Shown here piece after piece: positions 5,653 to 58,797 of a stretch of 64,000 nucleotides of DNA. How positions within the stretch are numbered: position 1 is the stretch's first letter; every line of letters begins with the position of its first letter. The notes beneath the pieces were generated by a model. It had not been told where the DNA came from. It saw only the letters and a list, made by a program, of their open reading frames with translations, and searched no databases. Made by a program: the position numbers and the translations under genes. The DNA is taken from assembly GCF_030013205.1 (NCBI RefSeq), contig NZ_CP122648.1; one strand, 5' to 3'. This DNA comes from Escherichia coli. GTDB taxonomy: Bacteria > Pseudomonadota > Gammaproteobacteria > Enterobacterales > Enterobacteriaceae.

Positions 5653-5854
5653 CGAAATAATCTGGCAGTTATAAACGTTTATTTTTTTACTGTTTGTGAT
5701 CTGCTTTCCGAACTTATTAAAAAGTCTCCCGCTTCACGGAGGCTTTTGTTATTGTCCTTTGTGCTTCTCGTGAGTAAATCATCAGGGATGATGTGAAGAT
5801 TAAATGTAAAACAATTGTTTTGCTATAACAATAAATTAACTGGGAGGTTTTATC

Positions 5855-6769: not shown

Positions 6770-6869
6770 AGTAAATGCTAAAAAAAGGGAAGGTTTAAAT
6801 AAACGCTGGAATGAATAATTAACGTTATTTACGTGTTATGGGAAAAGTGAAATCAGCTCATAACATACG

Positions 6870-7035
6870 CTGACAGGTGTGGCACATTTGTGCCTGGGAA
6901 GAGGGTGAAAATCCCTCGCAGCCCCCGCTGCTGTAATGCTGACAAACCCGAAAATACCACTGATCGCGAGATTGGGAAGGTCGGGGGAGGATGACGCTAA
7001 GCCAGAAGACCAGCCTGTCAGTCAATACCAACAAC
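6870..7035 (+). promoter_or_regulatory. cobalamin (B12) riboswitch, cob operon leader
   Basis: Conserved riboswitch blocks read directly: gtgcctgggaag...gggtgaaaatccc...gcagcccccgctgctgtaa...B12 box gccagaagaccagcctg. Confidence 0.6.
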
Positions 7036-13893: not shown

Positions 13894-15381
13894 ATGTGGT
13901 TTCACTTTCTGCAATTAAGGTCGGCTTTGAATATCTCCTCTGCTTTACGCCAGGTTGTTCACGGCACTCGCTGGCACGCTAAACGCAAGAGCTACAAAGT
14001 GTTGTTCTGGCGCGAGATAACCCCGCTTGCTGTTCCTATCTTCATGGAGAACGCCTGTGTCCTGTTGATGGGTGTCCTGAGCACTTTTCTGGTCAGCTGG
14101 CTGGGAAAAGATGCGATGGCCGGCGTGGGATTGGCGGACAGCTTCAATATGGTCATTATGGCATTTTTTGCGGCTATCGATCTTGGTACCACTGTCGTTG
14201 TGGCATTTAGTCTCGGTAAGCGGGATCGACGACGAGCGAGGGTGGCGACGCGGCAGTCATTGGTGATCATGACGTTGTTTGCCGTGCTGTTGGCAACGCT
14301 TATTCATCATTTTGGCGAACAAATTATTGATTTCGTTGCGGGTGATGCCACGACAGAAGTTAAAGCACTGGCGTTGACTTATCTGGAGCTGACGGTACTC
14401 AGTTATCCAGCAGCTGCCATCACTTTGATTGGTAGCGGGGCACTTCGTGGTGCAGGGAATACGAAAATACCGCTACTGATTAACGGTAGCCTGAATATTC
14501 TTAATATTATTATTAGCGGCATATTGATTTACGGCCTTTTCTCCTGGCCGGGACTGGGATTTGTCGGGGCTGGGTTGGGGTTAACCATTTCTCGTTATAT
14601 TGGCGCAGTGGCAATTTTGTGGGTGCTGGCGATTGGTTTTAATCCTGCGCTAAGGATTTCGTTAAAGAGCTATTTTAAACCGCTGAATTTTAGCATTATC
14701 TGGGAAGTCATGGGGATTGGTATTCCAGCGAGTGTCGAATCAGTATTATTTACCAGTGGTCGGTTATTAACCCAAATGTTCGTTGCCGGGATGGGGACCA
14801 GTGTTATTGCCGGGAATTTTATCGCGTTTTCAATTGCGGCTCTTATCAACTTACCCGGAAGTGCGCTCGGCTCTGCTTCTACGATCATTACAGGCCGAAG
14901 GTTGGGGGTAGGGCAGATAGCGCAAGCAGAGATTCAGTTGCGGCATGTGTTCTGGCTGTCCACTCTTGGATTAACGGCCATCGCCTGGCTAACGGCTCCC
15001 TTTGCCGGGGTTATGGCATCGTTTTACACCCAGGATCCACAGGTTAAACATGTCGTTGTGATTCTGATTTGGCTAAATGCTTTATTTATGCCTATTTGGT
15101 CCGCCTCATGGGTGCTACCCGCTGGATTTAAGGGTGCTCGCGATGCCCGTTACGCCATGTGGGTTTCTATGTTGAGCATGTGGGGTTGCCGGGTTGTAGT
15201 CGGTTATGTGCTGGGAATCATGCTTGGCTGGGGTGTGGTTGGTGTCTGGATGGGAATGTTTGCCGACTGGGCTGTGCGGGCCGTGCTGTTTTACTGGCGA
15301 ATGGTTACTGGACGTTGGCTGTGGAAATATCCTCGACCCGAGCCGCAAAAGTGTGAAAAAAAGCCAGTTGTGTCGGAATAA
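13894..15381 (+). CDS. yeeO: MATE-family efflux transporter
   Basis: ORF 13741-15381, 12-TM-like hydrophobic profile; start uncertain, 13894 (MWFHFLQ...) chosen because 13741 abuts asnU. Confidence 0.8.
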   Translation: MWFHFLQLRSALNISSALRQVVHGTRWHAKRKSYKVLFWREITPLAVPIFMENACVLLMGVLSTFLVSWLGKDAMAGVGLADSFNMVIMAFFAAIDLGTTVVVAFSLGKRDRRRARVATRQSLVIMTLFAVLLATLIHHFGEQIIDFVAGDATTEVKALALTYLELTVLSYPAAAITLIGSGALRGAGNTKIPLLINGSLNILNIIISGILIYGLFSWPGLGFVGAGLGLTISRYIGAVAILWVLAIGFNPALRISLKSYFKPLNFSIIWEVMGIGIPASVESVLFTSGRLLTQMFVAGMGTSVIAGNFIAFSIAALINLPGSALGSASTIITGRRLGVGQIAQAEIQLRHVFWLSTLGLTAIAWLTAPFAGVMASFYTQDPQVKHVVVILIWLNALFMPIWSASWVLPAGFKGARDARYAMWVSMLSMWGCRVVVGYVLGIMLGWGVVGVWMGMFADWAVRAVLFYWRMVTGRWLWKYPRPEPQKCEKKPVVSE

Positions 15382-18935: not shown

Positions 18936-19851
18936 GAATCCCTCTGCAACAAAAACAAACAGTCTCCGGCGTGTGCTTTTTGGCTGCGCCAGAACGATAC
19001 CTTTACGCCGGAGTGGTAGTTTGTTGAGGTTTAGGGAGTTTCAGGCTGTACGCAGTACAGACTGCCTGCGAAGCAGGAGTGTCTCCGGGGCTTCTTGCCC
19101 CCCTCGGTATCGATCTTTTTCTCCTTTACTCTTAGCTGACAGCGGCCCCAAAGGGCATGTCAGACGGCGGAAATATGGCGCAGGCCAGAACTGGCGCGGC
19201 TTGTGGCGGTAAGTTGTGCGGCGTCACTTTGCTTTTTCGCTGGCGCGACCAAAGTGACGCCTCGTCTGGTGCAGGGGGTAAACGTTACGTTTCTGGTGCA
19301 GGGTGACGGTCACGCGGCAGCAAAGCCTGACGGCAATGCAGGCCGCAGCCCGTCAATGTAAGGCGCTGGTTGTCAGCAGAAGATAAAACCCGGCAAAGCC
19401 AGAGTGTCAGCCCGTAAAGCCGGGTATCTGGTGCAGTGATGGTGTATATGTACGTCAGTCTCAGATGCAGGTATTTTTGCATCCCCGGCGTTTTCAGAGA
19501 TCAACGCCGGTAAAGGATGCCATGCTGGCGAAGCCAGGCGCTTCTTTCAGACGTGAAGCGACAAAGGGACTGCCCGGAGGCAGTTTGTTGCAGGCGGGAG
19601 ACTGCGCCATTATTTCTGGTGCAGGAAGGAAAAACTGTTTCCGGGTTTAAAAGATTGTTTGCTTACCTGGTGACGGAAAAACTGCCGCGCTTCGCTTGTC
19701 TTCTCCCGGCGCGCTGCCAGCAAAAGCAGGCAGCGCGCCGGGAGAGTCTGGTTTTACTGTAACAATGCGCCTGACGGTTCAGCCATCAGGATCGGCGTTT
19801 ATGCATGAGTCTTCCGGTACGGTTGCCCCGATCATCGATGTATCTGGACGG

Positions 19852-20498: not shown

Positions 20499-21019
20499 AA
20501 GGCCGTCTACAGTGAGTGATAAATATTCCAGCCACTGGAGAGGCTAATCTCACGGGTGGTGGAACCGGACGGGGTTAGCCTTACCAGCCTCACTGACACT
20601 GGCGCGTCTTTCGACGCCCCCGCCCGATCCCGCCATTGAGATGAGACCGTGCGCGACACACAAATATTGTATCGTCAGTGAGGATCTTCAGGAGGCTAAT
20701 CCCGACGCCTGATTTTGCAGGCGCGGCGCAACAATACAATGTTCGGTAATTTTCAGCAAGAGGTTTAGCGGAAGCAGACGCACAGGAAAATACAATCACG
20801 CGATAAATATTAAATACAATTATATTTATATAAAATATATATTGAGCAATATGCAGACACTTTCCAGTAAATATCCTGTCAGTTAATTCGTCCCGTTGAT
20901 ATCAGTCAAAAAAATAAATGTAAAAAGAGCGTATTTCGTTTCATACAGTAACGTTATTTATCATTTTGTCCGGTGTCGCCAGCATCAGGCCAGATGAACC
21001 ATAAAAAAGGATATCAGCG

Positions 21020-38907: not shown

Positions 38908-38998
38908 CGGAGAGATGCCGGAGCGGCTGAACGGACCGGTCTCGAAAACCGGAGTGGGGGCAACTCCACCGGGGGTTCAAATCCCCCTCTCTCCGCCA
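38908..38998 (+). tRNA. serU: tRNA-Ser (CGA); attachment site of the prophage that follows
   Basis: ggagagatgccggagcggctgaacggaccggtctCGAaaaccgg...long variable arm...ggttcaaatccccctctctccgcca. Confidence 0.85.
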
Positions 38999-42779: not shown

Positions 42780-42987
42780 TATTGATAAACCTCATCACAG
42801 ATTTAAGGGTGAACAAATCTCTGCCATTGCTGACATATAAGAATGAAACTGGATATTTATTACGGTGCTGTTTTAAAATCCTGCCGGGATTTCGTTATCC
42901 TGGTGAATAACTTTATCGACCGGATAACAGTTGCCTGGAATTTTCTGTTCGGTTGCTGCGGCCATACATTCCGGTAATGACTCCAAC

Positions 42988-43491
42988 TTACTGATAGTGT
43001 TTTATGTTCAGATAATGCCCGATGACCTTGTCATGCAGCTCCACCGATTTTGAGAACGACAGTGACTTCCGTCCCAGCCTTGCCAGATGTTGTCTCAGAT
43101 TCAGGTTATGCCGCTCAATGCGCTGAGTATAACGCTTGCTGATAACGTGCAGCTTTCCCTTCAGGCGTGATTCATACAGCGGCCAGCCATCCGTCATCCA
43201 TACCACGACCTCAAAGGCCGACAGCAGGCTCAGAAGACGCTCCAGTGTGGCCAGAGTGCGTTCACCGAAGACGTGCGCCACAACCGTCCTCCGCATCCTG
43301 TCATACGCGTAAAACAGCCAGCGCTGACGTGATTTAGCACCGACGTAGCCCCACTGTTCGTCCATTTCAGCGCAGACAATCACATCACTGCCCGGTTGTA
43401 TGCGCGAGGTTACCGACTGCGGCCTGAGTTTTTTAAGTGGCGGAAAATCGTGTTGAGGCCAACGCCAATAATGCGTGCACTGGCGCGACAT
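42988..43491 (-). CDS. insB: IS1 transposase InsB
   Basis: Identical 167 aa product to the first copy. Confidence 0.9.
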
Positions 43492-43685
43492 CCGACGCCA
43501 TTCATGGCCATATCAATGATTTTCTGGTGCGTACCGGGCTGAGAGGCGGCGTAAGTGAACTGTAGTTGCCATGTTTTACGGCAGTGAGAGCAGAGATAGC
43601 GCTGATGTCCGGCGGTGCTTTTGCCGTTACGCACCACCCCGTCAGTAGCTGAACAGGAGGGACAGCTGATAGAAACAGAAGCCAC
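43410..43685 (-). CDS. insA: IS1 InsA
   Basis: Identical 91 aa product to the first copy. Confidence 0.9.
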
Positions 43686-43833
43686 TGGAGCACCTCAAAA
43701 ACACCATCATACACTAAATCAGTAAGTTGGCAGCATCACCTACATTCCTGCATTGTTCTGTGAACACTGACTGCAATATCAACTGACTCTCCGGAAACAA
43801 GAAAAACCGTCAGAATAAGTGCAAATACTGGAT

Positions 43834-44022
43834 TCATTGTGCACATCCTTTTGGCATCAGACGTAAACGGGCCAGCATTGAAACAATGCATACTTTATTT
43901 AATAACTCCCGTTCGTGTTTTCTTTTGTTAATGGCCTCTTCAGTGAATACAGGATTACTGATAGTGACACCAATTTCAAAACAACCTTCAGACGTATTAA
44001 CGTTTGGTAATAACGTTTTCAT
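43834..44022 (-). CDS. dicB: cell-division inhibitor DicB homolog
   Basis: Internal start MKTLLPNVNTSEGCFEIGVTISNPVFTEEAINKRKHERELLNKVCIVSMLARLRLMPKGCAQ (62 aa), closely matching the DicB I recall from Qin. Confidence 0.75.
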   Translation of the reverse strand: MKTLLPNVNTSEGCFEIGVTISNPVFTEEAINKRKHERELLNKVCIVSMLARLRLMPKGCAQ

Positions 44023-44196
44023 TATCGCGCCCTCAACAATGAGTTTTGTGATGCGGTGCCTGGTGCCTCCAGGTGACGTTAACCAGTTAACAATTAACGC
44101 CGGATACAGAGAATCCACCCATAACACTGTTTTGGGTTTTAACTGTTCCGCGTGCGCTTAGCCGCATTCACCGCATCACAAAATTCACTTTAAAAA

Positions 44197-44249
44197 TGGC
44201 GGCAGAGCAGTCACGGAGTAAAACTGATACCGCCAAACGTCACCAGAAA
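44197..44249 (-). ncRNA. dicF: DicF small RNA
   Basis: Reverse complement reads tttctggtgacgtttggcggtatcagttttactccgtgactgctctgccgcc, just upstream of dicB. Confidence 0.7.
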
Positions 44250-44793
44250 ATTGATAACAGAGGGCGTTGCAGCGGGGTTGTCACTTAAGCGTATGGTCAA
44301 CCTGACAACCCGGTGTCCTCAACGGGGAAGGAATAACCTCGCCATACTTACCGCCGCGCCATTTCGCGGAGTGCCACAACCGGAAGCGCACGGTCGACGA
44401 AAATTTAACGACAGGCTATCTATGAACCAGCTACCTCGCCGTGCGCTTTCGCGTTATGGTCTGACTTTTCAGGGAAATATCCTTTCAGTAAACTGTCAGT
44501 GCCGGATGTTCACCCGTGTCCGGCGCACGCACTCCACCTCACCCGTGGAGAACTCCTTAATTACCAACCCTCAGGAGGGTGAATGTTAAAATCAACTCTT
44601 ATTGCTAAATGCCTTTATCAAAATCGCATGGTAAGCAGCATTTCAATAGGCGAGTCTGCAGTTAAAAGTATTTTCGAAGAGTACTTCCCCGGGCATGATT
44701 TTAATAAATGGAATACCAAATTACCGCCAGCAGTTTCAACGCGTATTCTGAAATCAACTGAAAGAGCAAGTACAATTCGCGTTAACTATTTCA

Positions 44794-45201
44794 TTAAAGA
44801 TTTGTGGGATCTTTGATATCCACAGAGCCTAAAGTATGTGCATATGGATGTGCTATTGTGCGCCCTCGCAGATTTGCATCATTTTCTAAATTCACTGAAC
44901 GAAACAGGGCATCAACAAGGCTCTGTACAATGCAAAGGCAATCGAAGACTGTCGCTGTTTCTGTTTTGATTGATGAAAGAACATGGCCATTCACGCAAAC
45001 AGAAATTACCCGTTCATTAACATCGCTTTCCTGCTTTTGATTATCAGAACCATATAGCCCAGAAAAAGCATTGCGCACATTACGAACCATATTATCGATG
45101 GTTTCTTTTTTGGTGTATGCCGGGTCAATTTTCACCAGACTATCACCGAGAGTCGTTGCAGCAATTGTCTGGATTTCTTTTGGTAAATCTTTAAATTCCA
45201 T
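44794..45201 (-). CDS. hypothetical prophage protein (dic operon region)
   Basis: 135 aa ORF co-oriented with the dic operon; no family assignable. Confidence 0.4.
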   Translation of the reverse strand: MEFKDLPKEIQTIAATTLGDSLVKIDPAYTKKETIDNMVRNVRNAFSGLYGSDNQKQESDVNERVISVCVNGHVLSSIKTETATVFDCLCIVQSLVDALFRSVNLENDANLRGRTIAHPYAHTLGSVDIKDPTNL

Positions 45202-45223
45202 TATTAGCCTCGTTGGTTAGCTA

Positions 45224-45442
45224 TTAACGTGGGTATGTAATCATTCTGGCAATGCTTAATGCCGCTGCTTTTTCCAGATTGGTGATATCCTGCTCCAGAG
45301 CGGACAGATTTTCAGCCTGCTTAGCCCTGGCTTCATTGGCCCATTTCAGATCCTGCACTGCATTAATTTTCTGGCGCATCCACTTATAAAGTTCATCATC
45401 GGTATAGTCTGGCGCGATGATGACGGGTTCTCGTTTCTGCAT
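45224..45442 (-). CDS. hypothetical prophage protein (YdfB/YdfC-like position)
   Basis: 72 aa ORF in the dic operon. Confidence 0.4.
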   Translation of the reverse strand: MQKREPVIIAPDYTDDELYKWMRQKINAVQDLKWANEARAKQAENLSALEQDITNLEKAAALSIARMITYPR

Positions 45443-45601
45443 ACTGATTCCTCGCGGTGCTGTTTCGCTTATCAGCCGTTAGATTTTGCCGAACTGGAAA
45501 GCGCCTGTTTAAACTCACTGAAGCTGAGAGCTTCTTCGCCTTCGGCAAGTCCTTCGAAGTATTCTTCGTAAGCCTTTTCCATGATTGTGTCGAAATCCAT
45601 A

Positions 45602-45838
45602 TTACTCACCTGAGTTTCTTTCCAGCCAGCGACGCGCGCCAGATTCGGTTTTAAACGTTTTGCTTTTGGTATACGTCATCGCGGTGAACGTGCCGTCCTG
45701 GTTGGGAAACACGCCGTATACCAGAGATTCGTTGTTGCCAAGATCGATAGTATCCATGCTGACCTCATTTCCCCTTAACGCCGGGGTAGCGGAACAAAAA
45801 CCTGCTGCATAGTTATTAAAGTTGAACCCTGCCGTCAT
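45602..45838 (-). CDS. hypothetical prophage protein
   Basis: 78 aa ORF; a further ~47-codon ORF (MDFDTIMEKAYEEYFEGLAEGEE..., ~45460-45600, minus) lies just downstream. Confidence 0.4.
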   Translation of the reverse strand: MTAGFNFNNYAAGFCSATPALRGNEVSMDTIDLGNNESLVYGVFPNQDGTFTAMTYTKSKTFKTESGARRWLERNSGE

Positions 45839-46021
45839 GTTCTTACGCCTCGGGCTGGCTACTTAACCCCTGACCACTGCCTGGTAACTCGAAGTATTGC
45901 CCTGCATTCTGTGGGGCGGGGTGGGTTGGTATGAAAAGAAGGATACCCATAGGTATTTAAAAGTAAATACCCATGGGTAACTTTTTGCGGTGTCTTAACT
46001 GGTGACTAGTTGTTTGGTGAG

Positions 46022-46441
46022 CTATGATGCGTTTTGTGCTTTCTTTTTACGGATTTCTTCGTAGATCATATTGTAATACTGTTTTTTCTCTTCAAGAGTT
46101 TTTAATAAGTTATCCGCTTCACTTTCTGGCAGTTCGTCTAAGAGATCTAAAAAAATACGTTGTCGTGGCGTTAGAACCCTTGTTTCATAACTGGAGGCTG
46201 TGTTCGTTGATGATGAAACGATACCATCCATCCATCCCCGGGGTAACCCAAAGGACTCTTCGATAATCTCCACCATATCATCAGCGATCCGTTTTTTTCC
46301 CTTTTTCCCCTCTGGGTACAACATTCTTGATACATAAGAAGGCTCGCGCCCGATCTTTCTGGCCACGTTAACCGCTTTACCATCGCATTTCTCATCACGA
46401 ATTTTGATGAGTTGCTGTCGTCTAAATTCATATTTGTCCAT
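46022..46441 (-). CDS. prophage repressor (HTH; DicA/CI-like role)
   Basis: 139 aa with HTH AVNVARKIGREPSYVSRML; transcribed divergently from the cro-like gene. Confidence 0.6.
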   Translation of the reverse strand: MDKYEFRRQQLIKIRDEKCDGKAVNVARKIGREPSYVSRMLYPEGKKGKKRIADDMVEIIEESFGLPRGWMDGIVSSSTNTASSYETRVLTPRQRIFLDLLDELPESEADNLLKTLEEKKQYYNMIYEEIRKKKAQNAS

Positions 46442-46541
46442 AGGTAAATAATAGATGCGATTACCGCAAGGTAAACAACCTGTGGGTATTGACTTTTGTT
46501 TACCTGTGGGTATTCTTTACTGTGTTTACTAAGGAGTAGCT

Positions 46542-46823
46542 ATGGAAGAATTAAGAATATTTCTCAATTCTCTTTCGTCAGATGAACAGCGTATGTTTGC
46601 ATGCGAGTGTGGTACCAGCATCGGTTATCTAAGAAAGGCATTGAGTAAAGGTCAAGTGTTAGGGGCATCGTTATGCGTCCTTATTGAGCGAGCCAGTAAT
46701 GGTGAAGTTACACGTCAGCAACTAAGGCCTTTTGATTGGATGAATATTTGGCCCGAGCTGGAAGATACCAAAACGTTAACACAACCACTTTCTAGGAGCT
46801 TGATTCATGAAAATCAAGCATGA
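46542..46823 (+). CDS. Cro/DicC-like small regulator
   Basis: 93 aa ORF facing the repressor across a ~100 bp operator-like spacer. Confidence 0.5.
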   Translation: MEELRIFLNSLSSDEQRMFACECGTSIGYLRKALSKGQVLGASLCVLIERASNGEVTRQQLRPFDWMNIWPELEDTKTLTQPLSRSLIHENQA

Positions 46824-50254: not shown

Positions 50255-50683
50255 TTGAGGCTATCTTCCTCTGATGTGTCAGGCATCCTCAACGCACCCG
50301 CACTTAACCCGCTTCGGCGGGTTTTGTTTTTTCCTGGCATTCTGGTTTACAATTCGCACGCCAGCCTGAACAACTGGCACCTGCTGCGCCAGCAGAGACA
50401 ACCGATGGCGCACGATACCAAATTACACAATTCTGATAATTCAGCCGTCTTTGCCAGCAGGCACGGGCGGCGCTCTCACGCATTTAAATCTGATTGGTAC
50501 CAGCATCCCCCATGTACTGAAGAACAAGCTGAATGGCTAATTCAGTGCTGCCGCAGACACGGATACGAGATTAAGAAAGCCCTCAGCCTCGATTATCGTC
50601 ACTGGATAATCTCCGTCAGGCTTCCTTACTCCGAACGCCCACCGCGTCCGTCCCGCACATTCCAGCAACGGATCTGGAGGTAA
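50255..50683 (+). CDS. hypothetical nin-region protein (possibly YbcN-like)
   Basis: 142 aa ORF upstream of the DUF968-like gene; start may be the internal Met (MAHDTKLHNSDN...). Confidence 0.4.
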   Translation: MRLSSSDVSGILNAPALNPLRRVLFFPGILVYNSHASLNNWHLLRQQRQPMAHDTKLHNSDNSAVFASRHGRRSHAFKSDWYQHPPCTEEQAEWLIQCCRRHGYEIKKALSLDYRHWIISVRLPYSERPPRPSRTFQQRIWR

Positions 50684-54036: not shown

Positions 54037-54112
54037 GGCCCTTTAGCTCAGTGGTGAGAGCGAGCGACTCATAATCGCCAGGTCGCTGGTTCGAATCCAG
54101 CAAGGGCCACCA
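54037..54112 (+). tRNA. tRNA with CAU anticodon (ileX/ileZ-like Ile2 or Met)
   Basis: ggccctttagctcagtggtgagagcgagcgactCATaatcgccaggtcgctggttcgaatccagcaagggccacca. Confidence 0.7.
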
Positions 54113-54113
54113 A

Positions 54114-54190
54114 CCGCCACCAGTTCACCAAGAAAGAGTGTTAACCCTTTAAGTTGAGTGTGCGAGGTTCGAGTCCTCGGTGGCGGTCCA
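54114..54190 (+). tRNA. atypical tRNA-like gene (possible UUU anticodon; D-arm lacks GG)
   Basis: Acceptor ccgccac/gtggcgg, T-arm cgagg-ttcgagt-cctcg, 3' CCA; anticodon loop cctttaa has C at position 33. Confidence 0.4.
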
Positions 54191-54192
54191 GT

Positions 54193-54268
<76 letters not shown>

Positions 54269-54271
54269 TAT

Positions 54272-54346
<75 letters not shown>

Positions 54347-56578: not shown

Positions 56579-57061
56579 ATGTCAGGCCCCCCGAAAACCC
56601 CGCCACGCCTGCATTTGATACGAGGCAACCCCTCAAAACGTCCCGTTAAAGACCCCAAAAAAACCGCTAAAAAGGACGAAAAAGGTCTTCCTAAAATTCC
56701 GCAACATTTAGGGGCGCAGGGGAAGTACTGGTTCAGGCGAATGGCGGAAGAGTTGAATGCGGAAGGGATCATTTCTCAGCTCGATGCACGTGCGCTCGAG
56801 TTACTGGTGGAAGCCTACACCGAATACCGGCATCACTGCGAAATACTCGATGTTGAGGGTTATACCTACCGCACGGAAACGCAGAATGGCGATGTGCTGA
56901 TCAAGGCACACCCGGCTGCTGCGATGAAGGCTGATGCCTGGAAGCGAATCCGGGCGATGCTTGCAGAGTTTGGTATGTCACCGGCAAGCCGGGCGAAAGT
57001 AAATACCGCCGGACCGGATGATGTTGATCCGCTGGCAGAGCTTTTAAAAGCGAGAGACTGA
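56579..57061 (+). CDS. terminase small subunit (P27-like)
   Basis: 160 aa; stop overlaps the large-subunit start. Confidence 0.7.
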   Translation: MSGPPKTPPRLHLIRGNPSKRPVKDPKKTAKKDEKGLPKIPQHLGAQGKYWFRRMAEELNAEGIISQLDARALELLVEAYTEYRHHCEILDVEGYTYRTETQNGDVLIKAHPAAAMKADAWKRIRAMLAEFGMSPASRAKVNTAGPDDVDPLAELLKARD

Positions 57062-58797
57062 TGGCAAAAGTGGCTGACGGGATCCGCTACGCCGAACGTG
57101 TTGTTGCAGGAGAAATTGTTGCTGGCGAATTTGTCCGTCTGGCCTGCCAGCGTTTTCTTGATGATCTGAAGTACGGCGAAGAGCGGGGGATTTATTTCAG
57201 TGAACCCCGTGCACAGCACATCCTGAATTTCTACAAATTTGTACCCCATGTGAAAGGGGCGCTGGCAGGTCAGCCCATTGAGTTGATGGACTGGCATGTG
57301 TTTATCCTCATTAATATTTTTGGTTTTGTCATTCCGCTGGTGAATGAAGAAACCGGGGAAGTTGTCATGCGCAGCGATGGCAGTGGATGCCCGGTGATGG
57401 TGCGCCGGTTCCGGACAGCATACAACGAAGTTGCCCGTAAAAACGCAAAATCAACCCTGTCATCGGGTATCGGTCTGTATATGACGGGGGCAGATGGTGA
57501 AGGCGGGGCTGAGGTGTATTCAGCCGCAACCACGCGTGACCAGGCCAGAATCGTGTTTGAAGACGCCAAAAATATGGTCAGAAAAGCCCGGTCGACACTC
57601 GGGCGATTGTTTGATTTCAACAAGCTGGCGATCTACCAGGAGCAGAGCGCATCAAAATTTGAACCCCTTTCCTCGGATGCAAACAACCTGGACGGTCTGA
57701 ACATCCACTGCGCCATTATTGATGAGCTGCATGCACATAAAACCCGCGACGTGTGGGACGTTCTGGAAACGGCAACCGGTGCCCGTCTGCAGTCCCTGTT
57801 ATTTGGTATCACCACGGCGGGCTTTAACAAGGAAGGGATTTGTTACGAGCAACGCGATTACGCCATCAAGGTATTGCGAGGCTATAACAGCGACGTGGAG
57901 GGCGCGGTAAAAGACGACTCCTACTTTGCAATTATTTACACGCTCGATGAGGGAGATGATCCGTTTGATGAAACGGTCTGGCAGAAAGCGAATCCCGGCC
58001 TGGGCATCTGTAAACGCTGGGATGATCTGCGTCGTCTGGCGAAAAAGGCGAAGGAGCAGGTCTCGGCGCGGGTGAATTTTTTCACGAAACACATGAATGT
58101 GTGGGTCACTGCCGAATCTGCCTGGATGGACATGATTAAGTGGGAGAAGTGCGAATACATTGCTCCACAGCATGAGCTGAAAACATATCCCATGTGGGTC
58201 GGCGTCGACCTTGCTCATAAGATTGATATCTGTGCGGCGGCAAAACTCTGGCGAACCGATAACGGGCATGTTCATGCCGATTTTAAATTCTGGCTTCCGG
58301 AAGGACGGCTGGAACGATGCTCGCGGCAGCAGGCAGAACTTTACCGGAAGTGGGCAGAGATGGGGAAGCTCATCCTGACGGATGGTGATGTTATCGATCA
58401 TGCTCAGATAAAAAGTGACTTACTGGAATGGATTGGCGGTGAAAACCTCAGGGAACTGGGATTTGACCCGTGGAGCGCAATGCAGTTCAGTCTGGCGCTG
58501 GCTGAAGAAGGGATACCGCTGGTGGAAGTTCCGCAGACGGTCCGCAATCTGTCAGAGGCTATGAAGGAAACGGAATCACTGGTTTATGCCGGACGTTTCC
58601 ACCACAGCAATCATCCGGTCATGAACTGGATGATGTCTAACGTTACGGTAAAACCGGACAAAAACGACAATATCTTCCCGAATAAATCCACGCCGGAAGC
58701 CAAAATCGACGGCCCTGTTGCGATGTTTACAGCAATGAGCCGGATGCTGGTCAATGGCGGTGAACTGAAGTTGCGTAGAGAAGTGGTCAATAATTGA
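57061..58797 (+). CDS. terminase large subunit
   Basis: 578 aa, ATPase plus nuclease layout; last phage gene before the host junction. Confidence 0.8.
   Translation: MAKVADGIRYAERVVAGEIVAGEFVRLACQRFLDDLKYGEERGIYFSEPRAQHILNFYKFVPHVKGALAGQPIELMDWHVFILINIFGFVIPLVNEETGEVVMRSDGSGCPVMVRRFRTAYNEVARKNAKSTLSSGIGLYMTGADGEGGAEVYSAATTRDQARIVFEDAKNMVRKARSTLGRLFDFNKLAIYQEQSASKFEPLSSDANNLDGLNIHCAIIDELHAHKTRDVWDVLETATGARLQSLLFGITTAGFNKEGICYEQRDYAIKVLRGYNSDVEGAVKDDSYFAIIYTLDEGDDPFDETVWQKANPGLGICKRWDDLRRLAKKAKEQVSARVNFFTKHMNVWVTAESAWMDMIKWEKCEYIAPQHELKTYPMWVGVDLAHKIDICAAAKLWRTDNGHVHADFKFWLPEGRLERCSRQQAELYRKWAEMGKLILTDGDVIDHAQIKSDLLEWIGGENLRELGFDPWSAMQFSLALAEEGIPLVEVPQTVRNLSEAMKETESLVYAGRFHHSNHPVMNWMMSNVTVKPDKNDNIFPNKSTPEAKIDGPVAMFTAMSRMLVNGGELKLRREVVNN

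Follow-up and report, generated by a model that had tools for sequence, protein, structure and literature searches.

Whether a prophage integrated away from the Qin site carries a genuine Qin-type division-control cassette, and how far such a cassette follows Qin in composition and control, is the question raised by a locus in a 64,000-nucleotide stretch of an Escherichia coli chromosome, called the window in the following. In this window the original prediction had recognized the sequence of the small RNA DicF and a DicB-like open reading frame (ORF) of 62 amino acids (aa) in a prophage at serU. Both DicF and DicB are prophage-encoded, and their roles in regulating cell division, metabolism, and phage resistance have been studied extensively. 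The present comparison covers sequence identity, family membership, operon order, and location, as well as a repressor different from that of Qin and a set of repeated palindromes; the coordinates of the features are collected in Table 1.

Table 1. Features of the dicBF operon and its surroundings. Positions are those of the window.
Feature	Position	Strand	Basis or remark
tRNA-Ser(CGA), serU, integration site	38909-38998	plus	ARAGORN
ydfD 3' fragment	42873-42972	minus	Pfam DUF1482 profile positions 26-57
IS1, 768 bp, inside ydfD	42973-43740		InsA/InsB ORFs; annotated IS1 transposase
ydfD 5' fragment (DUF1482 lysis protein)	43741-43837	minus	Pfam DUF1482 profile positions 1-29
dicB (62-aa cell-division inhibitor)	43834-44022	minus	PF05358, NF049927, K-12 identity
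dicF-dicB spacer (174 nt)	44023-44196	minus	168/174 identical to K-12 (96.6%)
U-tract (UUUUU) 3' of dicF hairpin	44192-44196	minus	Sequence read
dicF (53-nt DicF sRNA including terminator hairpin)	44197-44249	minus	Rfam RF00039 and identity to K-12 b1574
Untranslated precursor region 5' of dicF	44250-44569	minus	97.5% identity to K-12 over 318 nt
Insert absent from Qin, 634 bp	44570-45203		Alignment gap versus K-12
ORF77	44583-44816	plus (convergent, antisense)	In 634-bp insert
ORF135	44794-45201	minus (operon direction)	In 634-bp insert
ydfC	45224-45442	minus	214/219 identical to K-12 (97.7%); annotated ydfC; phrog_1744
ydfB	45472-45600	minus	In block 96.4% identical to K-12; annotated ydfB
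ydfA (DUF1391), first gene of the operon	45602-45757	minus	Pfam DUF1391, 97.7 bits
12-bp palindrome pair TACCTATGGGTA and TACCCATGGGTA, 24 bp apart	45944-45979		Between repressor gene and ydfA
139-aa CI-like repressor gene, at the dicA position	46022-46441	minus	phrog_5736 'transcriptional regulator', E 4e-70
12-bp palindrome pair TACCCACAGGTT and TACCCACAGGTA, 24 bp apart	46477-46512		Between repressor and cro-like gene
Divergent cro-like gene ('transcriptional regulator')	46542-46823	plus	Annotated, as is YdaT

DicF and DicB are encoded in the window

An Rfam scan of the whole window gave one DicF match, to RF00039 at 44197-44248 on the minus strand, with 73.4 bits as compared with a gathering score of 48 (E = 2.7e-14 in the whole-window scan and 1.9e-15 in a local scan), and the alignment spans model positions 1-52 of 52 without truncation. 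When dicF from K-12 MG1655 (b1574, 53 nt) was aligned to the window from 44249 down to 44197, 52 of the 53 bases were identical, the sole change being a C to A replacement of the final base preceding the U-tract. The DicF sequence had therefore been recognized correctly, and both comparisons proposed for checking it, with the Rfam DicF model and with K-12 dicF, strongly support it. The changed terminal base is unpaired in the Rfam structure line, and the terminator stem gains one pair from it when the fold is predicted, with a hairpin energy of -17.5 kcal/mol here versus -15.9 in K-12; as modeled, the terminator hairpin is undisturbed by the change.

Within the polycistronic prophage operon, dicF sits between ydfC and dicB and has a conserved precursor region upstream. 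Taking over the processing sites from K-12 (PMC10448788), the stretch equivalent to the 190-nt DicF precursor generated by RNase III corresponds to 44197-44386 and is identical to K-12 at 186 of its 190 positions, and the predicted folds of the two precursors are nearly alike. In K-12, DicF base-pairs in an Hfq-dependent manner with the mRNAs of ftsZ, xylR, and pykA and represses their translation (PMC5069750), and from the 52/53 identity of the two RNAs it may be expected that DicF from the window would pair with the same targets. RefSeq records matching 43700-44600 (for example NZ_CP062203.1 and NZ_CP080235.1) have dicB annotated and list no dicF ncRNA feature. As the RNA is absent from these records though it scores well above the Rfam threshold, the dicF sRNA deserves to be added to them.

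The dicB ORF runs on the minus strand from an ATG at 44022 to a stop ending at 43834. Its 62-residue product matches Pfam DicB (PF05358) with 132.1 bits (cutoff 27; E 5.7e-39), residues 1-62 aligning to profile positions 1-62, and NCBIfam NF049927 with 130.7 bits (cutoff 100). Compared with K-12 DicB, 59 of 62 residues are identical (95%), the differences being D29E, Q36H, and I44V, and at the DNA level identity to K-12 amounts to 95.2%. In genomes with 100% identical DNA, dicB is annotated by PGAP. The predicted DicB-like ORF is thus confirmed over its full length, and the predicted location, 43834-44249, proves to be exactly the span from the dicB stop to the 5' end of dicF, to which the strand, minus for both features and missing from the prediction, can now be added. 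Judged from the sequences, the three substitutions in DicB and the terminal C to A change in dicF appear to be conservative or to lie outside paired positions. According to work on K-12 DicB, the protein binds MinC and inhibits division (PMC4967827) and also inhibits ManYZ, protecting against some phages (PMC6832061); by analogy, the DicB variant from the window may have the same MinC/ManYZ activity.

The ribosome-binding site of dicB, GAGG, is located inside the spacer that separates it from dicF. The same spacer gave an STnc100-like Rfam match (44045-44185, minus) with 38.7 bits, which is under the gathering score of 47. STnc100 is a Salmonella sRNA candidate, and this sub-threshold match probably reflects the homologous prophage region where STnc100 was defined.

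The operon body follows Qin, apart from an IS1 in ydfD and a 634-bp insert

The operon order ydfA-ydfB-ydfC-dicF-dicB-ydfD is the one found in Qin, with 95-98% identity over about 2 kb aligned. This synteny also bears on the idea that DicF and DicB are not present at all and that a chance resemblance or a mis-called ORF had been mistaken for them. Such a reading could appeal to both features being small (53 nt and 62 aa) and to nothing else, and it is refuted by the Rfam and Pfam matches, whose E-values of 2.7e-14 and 5.7e-39 were obtained over the full model and the full length, respectively, by the alignment with K-12, and by the identity of DicB, with the Qin synteny and the PGAP calls for dicB in identical DNA also standing against it; we consider it extremely improbable. 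DicF and DicB being present in a Qin-like operon, the question is how much of Qin accompanies them. All ORFs of the operon are intact except ydfD.

According to PMC8835842, ydfD encodes a lysis protein. In the window this gene is interrupted by IS1, which is flanked by an 8-bp direct duplication, TACATTCC; both the terminal inverted repeat and the flanks were read directly. The start of the 5' fragment, which is identical to K-12 at 88 of 97 positions (90.7%), overlaps the dicB stop (ATGA), and both fragments are annotated as incomplete pseudogene. With ydfD, the lysis gene of the operon, inactivated by IS1, the toxicity of derepression may be lower, and an IS1 located directly 3' of dicB might influence how stable the dicB message is. 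The window contains a second IS1 (31635-32402) that is 100% identical to the one in ydfD and that, as annotated in the O139:H1 locus, interrupts a gene for a family 9 glycosyltransferase.

The second alteration is the 634-bp insert between ydfC and the precursor region, which lies outside the 190-nt DicF precursor, further upstream. Its two ORFs overlap by 23 nt, and ORF77 has a strong Shine-Dalgarno sequence right at the edge of the insert. The two ORFs correspond to phrog_1363 and phrog_10348, both of which are families of unknown function in PHROGs, nothing significant was obtained for them in Pfam, NCBIfam, PADLOC, and PDB sequence searches, and a search for homologues returned only hypothetical proteins from Escherichia and Salmonella. 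For an AlphaFold model based on 18 homologues, the mean pLDDT was 48 and the pTM 0.30, values too poor for a fold search. Since many ORF135 homologues in other genomes are proteins of 201 aa with a different, longer C-terminus, the insert cassette is itself mosaic. At a coverage of at least 80%, the insert occurs in 645 complete E. coli genomes (about 12%), including O157:H7, and the copies in O157:H7 prophages show 93.7-98.9% identity. An insert with a convergent ORF between promoter and dicF could reduce read-through or alter processing. That it represents an accessory cassette, which might act as a small pair of the toxin/antitoxin-like or anti-phage kind or might tune the yield of DicF and DicB through transcriptional interference, is a proposal that we regard as unlikely.

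The operon belongs to a defective lambdoid prophage at serU

The gene content of the prophage was read from the annotated locus of the O139:H1 strain W13-16, which agrees with the window at more than 99.9% identity in the blocks that align. The prophage starts directly past the 3' end of serU, mtfA is found on the opposite side of this gene, and in W13-16 the order after serU is a frameshifted tyrosine integrase, a DUF4224 gene, an 813-aa RecE-like exonuclease, ydfD::IS1, dicB, and the operon. Beyond the operon there follow the immunity region, replication genes, RusA, Q, three phage tRNAs, the lysis genes for holin and endolysin, and the terminase, the large subunit of which (57061-58797) ends the phage, with the chromosomal zinT immediately adjacent. 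An integrase at the tRNA 3' end together with lambdoid early and late genes identifies a lambdoid prophage at serU, as had been predicted. The attL/attR duplication and the complete virion gene set of a functional prophage are missing: the element lacks head and tail genes, and an attR copy, that is, a direct repeat of the serU 3' end, was not found within 38800-60000. Because there are neither head and tail genes nor a second copy of the serU end, this is a defective lambdoid prophage, of about 20 kb.

Several smaller observations concern the same element. At about 50268-50271 the window lacks 332 bp that carry a prophage hokD toxin gene in W13-16 (locus positions 13998-14329), and an IS3 element situated beside zinT in W13-16 is absent from the window. 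A cluster of prophage tRNA genes (54037-54346, plus) separates the region of the Q antiterminator from the lysis genes; according to ARAGORN its members are Met(CAT), Thr(TGT), and Gly(TCC), and RefSeq has the first as tRNA-Ile.

Outside the prophage, an EFASI RNA (18991-19118, minus, 100.8 bits) and a C4 antisense RNA (20552-20640, minus, 62.2 bits) were detected 1.5 kb apart; this pair points to a satellite element, P4-like or retron-associated, in the asn-tRNA region. A cobalamin riboswitch (6858-7032, plus, 113.8 bits), the sRNA STnc230 (5711-5794, minus, 69.2 bits), and four tRNA-Asn genes within 11250-37917 were also found. This backbone of riboswitch, STnc230, and tRNA-Asn genes fits the asnT-asnV/serU region of E. 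coli, and the copy of the operon in the window belongs to a porcine ETEC/O139:H1-type chromosome.

The control region differs from that of Qin and is probably heteroimmune

DNA homology to K-12 Qin starts at about 45798, some 35-40 nt upstream of the ydfA start, and upstream of this point the DNA is unrelated to Qin. The 139-aa repressor encoded there resembles DicA only at its C-terminal end, in residues 89-134 (15 identities in 46 positions, 33%; E 1e-7); its DNA-binding part has no homology to DicA, and the NCBIfam DicA model gave 23.9 bits against a cutoff of 101. With a different repressor and a different palindrome, the Qin-type immunity control dicA/dicC-dicBp is not the one present here. 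The designation of the cassette as Qin-type therefore holds for the operon body and fails for the repressor and operators.

The palindromic motif TACCYAYRGGTA occurs with 10 strand-matches in the window versus 0.72 expected, a number reached in none of 100 shuffles, and 7 of the 10 belong to four sites that surround the repressor gene in a span of 570 bp. In Qin, the operators of DicA occupy the two places equivalent to the two palindrome pairs of the window (PMC10448788). By this analogy, the pair at 45944-45979 would be putative operators that overlap with the promoter of the operon, which would correspond to dicBp, and the four palindromes probably serve as operators for a CI-like repressor that is heteroimmune and similar to DicA over its 46 C-terminal aa. 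From the arrangement of the sites, we infer that this repressor may control the operon by a DicA-like logic. Being under a heteroimmune repressor, dicBF in the window would answer to signals unlike those for DicA/Rem in K-12.

A consensus promoter scan of the region upstream of ydfA gave no site at a threshold of 9 of 12 matches, and a weaker candidate with 8/12 was seen by eye. Because the scan found in total 7 sites versus 6.3 expected from shuffled sequence, and its counts are thus no higher than those of shuffled sequence, the placement of the promoter rests on the analogy with Qin.

A dicBF operon predicted to function as in K-12

It is very probable that the locus represents a standard dicBF early-left (PL-like) operon, ydfA-ydfB-ydfC-[ORF135]-dicF-dicB-ydfD', which resides in a defective serU prophage and would work as in K-12. 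For RNA processing, DicF targets, the MinC mechanism, and repressor-operator binding, this model draws by analogy on K-12 work. In the lysogen, the 139-aa CI-like repressor would keep the promoter upstream of ydfA off, probably by binding the paired TACCYAYRGGTA palindromes, those upstream of ydfA as well as those of the divergent repressor/cro region. Upon derepression, a polycistronic RNA would be formed, from which RNase III and RNase E would excise DicF, its own intrinsic terminator providing the 3' end; in K-12, DicF is processed by RNase III as well as RNase E from a transcript whose start is at dicBp (PMC10448788). Together with Hfq, DicF would then pair with the ftsZ mRNA, and also with those of xylR and pykA, and translation would be blocked. 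Transcripts that read through the terminator would permit translation of DicB, which would bind MinC and bring it to the division septum, leading to a block of Z-ring function. In addition, DicB may inhibit ManYZ, inner-membrane proteins used by some phages for DNA entry.

Alternatively, the module might be an intact-looking but functionally silent relic of a decaying prophage, either never derepressed or stopped from yielding DicF and DicB by the insert and IS1. The defects of the prophage (a frameshifted integrase, missing head and tail genes, no attR duplicate), the IS1 in ydfD, the insert with its convergent ORF upstream of dicF, and the failure of the scan to reveal a strong consensus promoter upstream of ydfA would all agree with such a relic. 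However, the operon ORFs other than ydfD are intact, DicF and its precursor share 97-98% of their bases with the copy in K-12, which is functional, and the repressor gene and putative operators are intact as well. Qin is equally defective, yet it makes DicF in stationary phase (PMC10448788). Furthermore, the insert has been kept in 645 genomes, which argues that it is tolerated. In the light of this evidence a silent relic appears very unlikely, and an operon capable of producing DicF and DicB upon derepression is the reading that we retain.

Comparison with Qin and other known carriers of dicBF

Matches to the 416-bp dicF-dicB core occur in 4650 of 5426 complete E. coli genomes, in 3834 of which they extend over at least 80% of the core, and the number of places per genome has a median of 2 and a maximum of 9; K_EC180, a genome matching the window at 100%, has 4 places that match the query. 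The core is also present in 38 phage records, inducible phages among them, and the arm consisting of ydfD, exonuclease, integrase, and serU is shared (at 80% or more) by at least 267 complete E. coli genomes. A dicBF cassette outside Qin is an ordinary feature, found in most E. coli genomes and at several prophage sites, and it has already been described: the presence of the dicF/dicBF operon in different prophages and in multiple copies has been published (PMC5069750), and many EHEC strains have four dicF copies (PMC7873438). The points specific to the copy in the window, namely the heteroimmune control region, the 634-bp insert, and the IS1 in ydfD, are modest, and beyond correct annotation the finding matters little.

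Among phages, Escherichia phage vB_EcoM-606R7 (ON470580.1), an induced prophage recorded with host flanks, has a dicF-dicB core 99.3% identical to that of the window and the same order of ydfB, ydfC, dicB, ydfD, exonuclease VIII, integrase, tRNA-Ser-CGA, and mtfA. Unlike the window, it has another repressor/cro pair, lacks the 634-bp insert, and carries an intact ydfD without IS1.

In EHEC O157:H7, the dicBF module is likewise located on several different lambdoid prophages per genome. As cited in PMC7873438, the reports of these multiple dicF/dicBF copies are those of Balasubramanian et al. (2016) and Melson and Kendall (2019). The O157:H7 copy inspected lies at the Qin-side site (ynfA), has a RelBE cassette, and is without ydfA and ydfB. 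An equation of the window prophage with an O157:H7 serU prophage was rejected, the best O157:H7 match inspected being at ynfA and not at serU. To our knowledge, no relevance of the EHEC-specific DicF targets pchA and stx2A is known for a porcine ETEC/O139-like background.

The closest point of reference is Qin (Kim) of K-12, with the arrangement ydfABC-dicF-dicB-ydfDE (b1571-b1577), which agrees in gene order and orientation with the operon in the window. Both prophages are defective and lambdoid, and in both the operon lies downstream of a CI-like repressor gene. They occupy different chromosomal sites, the window prophage being at serU and Qin in the ydfJ-rspB region of K-12, between rem/hokD and intQ/ynfP/rspB; since the serU site differs from that of Qin in K-12, the interpretation of the cassette as one carried at another chromosomal site is supported. 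As to its Qin-type character, the gene order stood up to the comparison, and it is modified here by the IS1 splitting ydfD and by the two-ORF insert of 634 bp between ydfC and the dicF precursor, neither of which is found in Qin. The repressor and operators of the window differ from DicA and dicBp of Qin and are probably heteroimmune to them, and the last base of dicF is A in the window and C in Qin. Downstream of ydfD, finally, the window has a full-length RecE-like exonuclease gene, whereas Qin has the ydfE pseudogene and an IS2 remnant.
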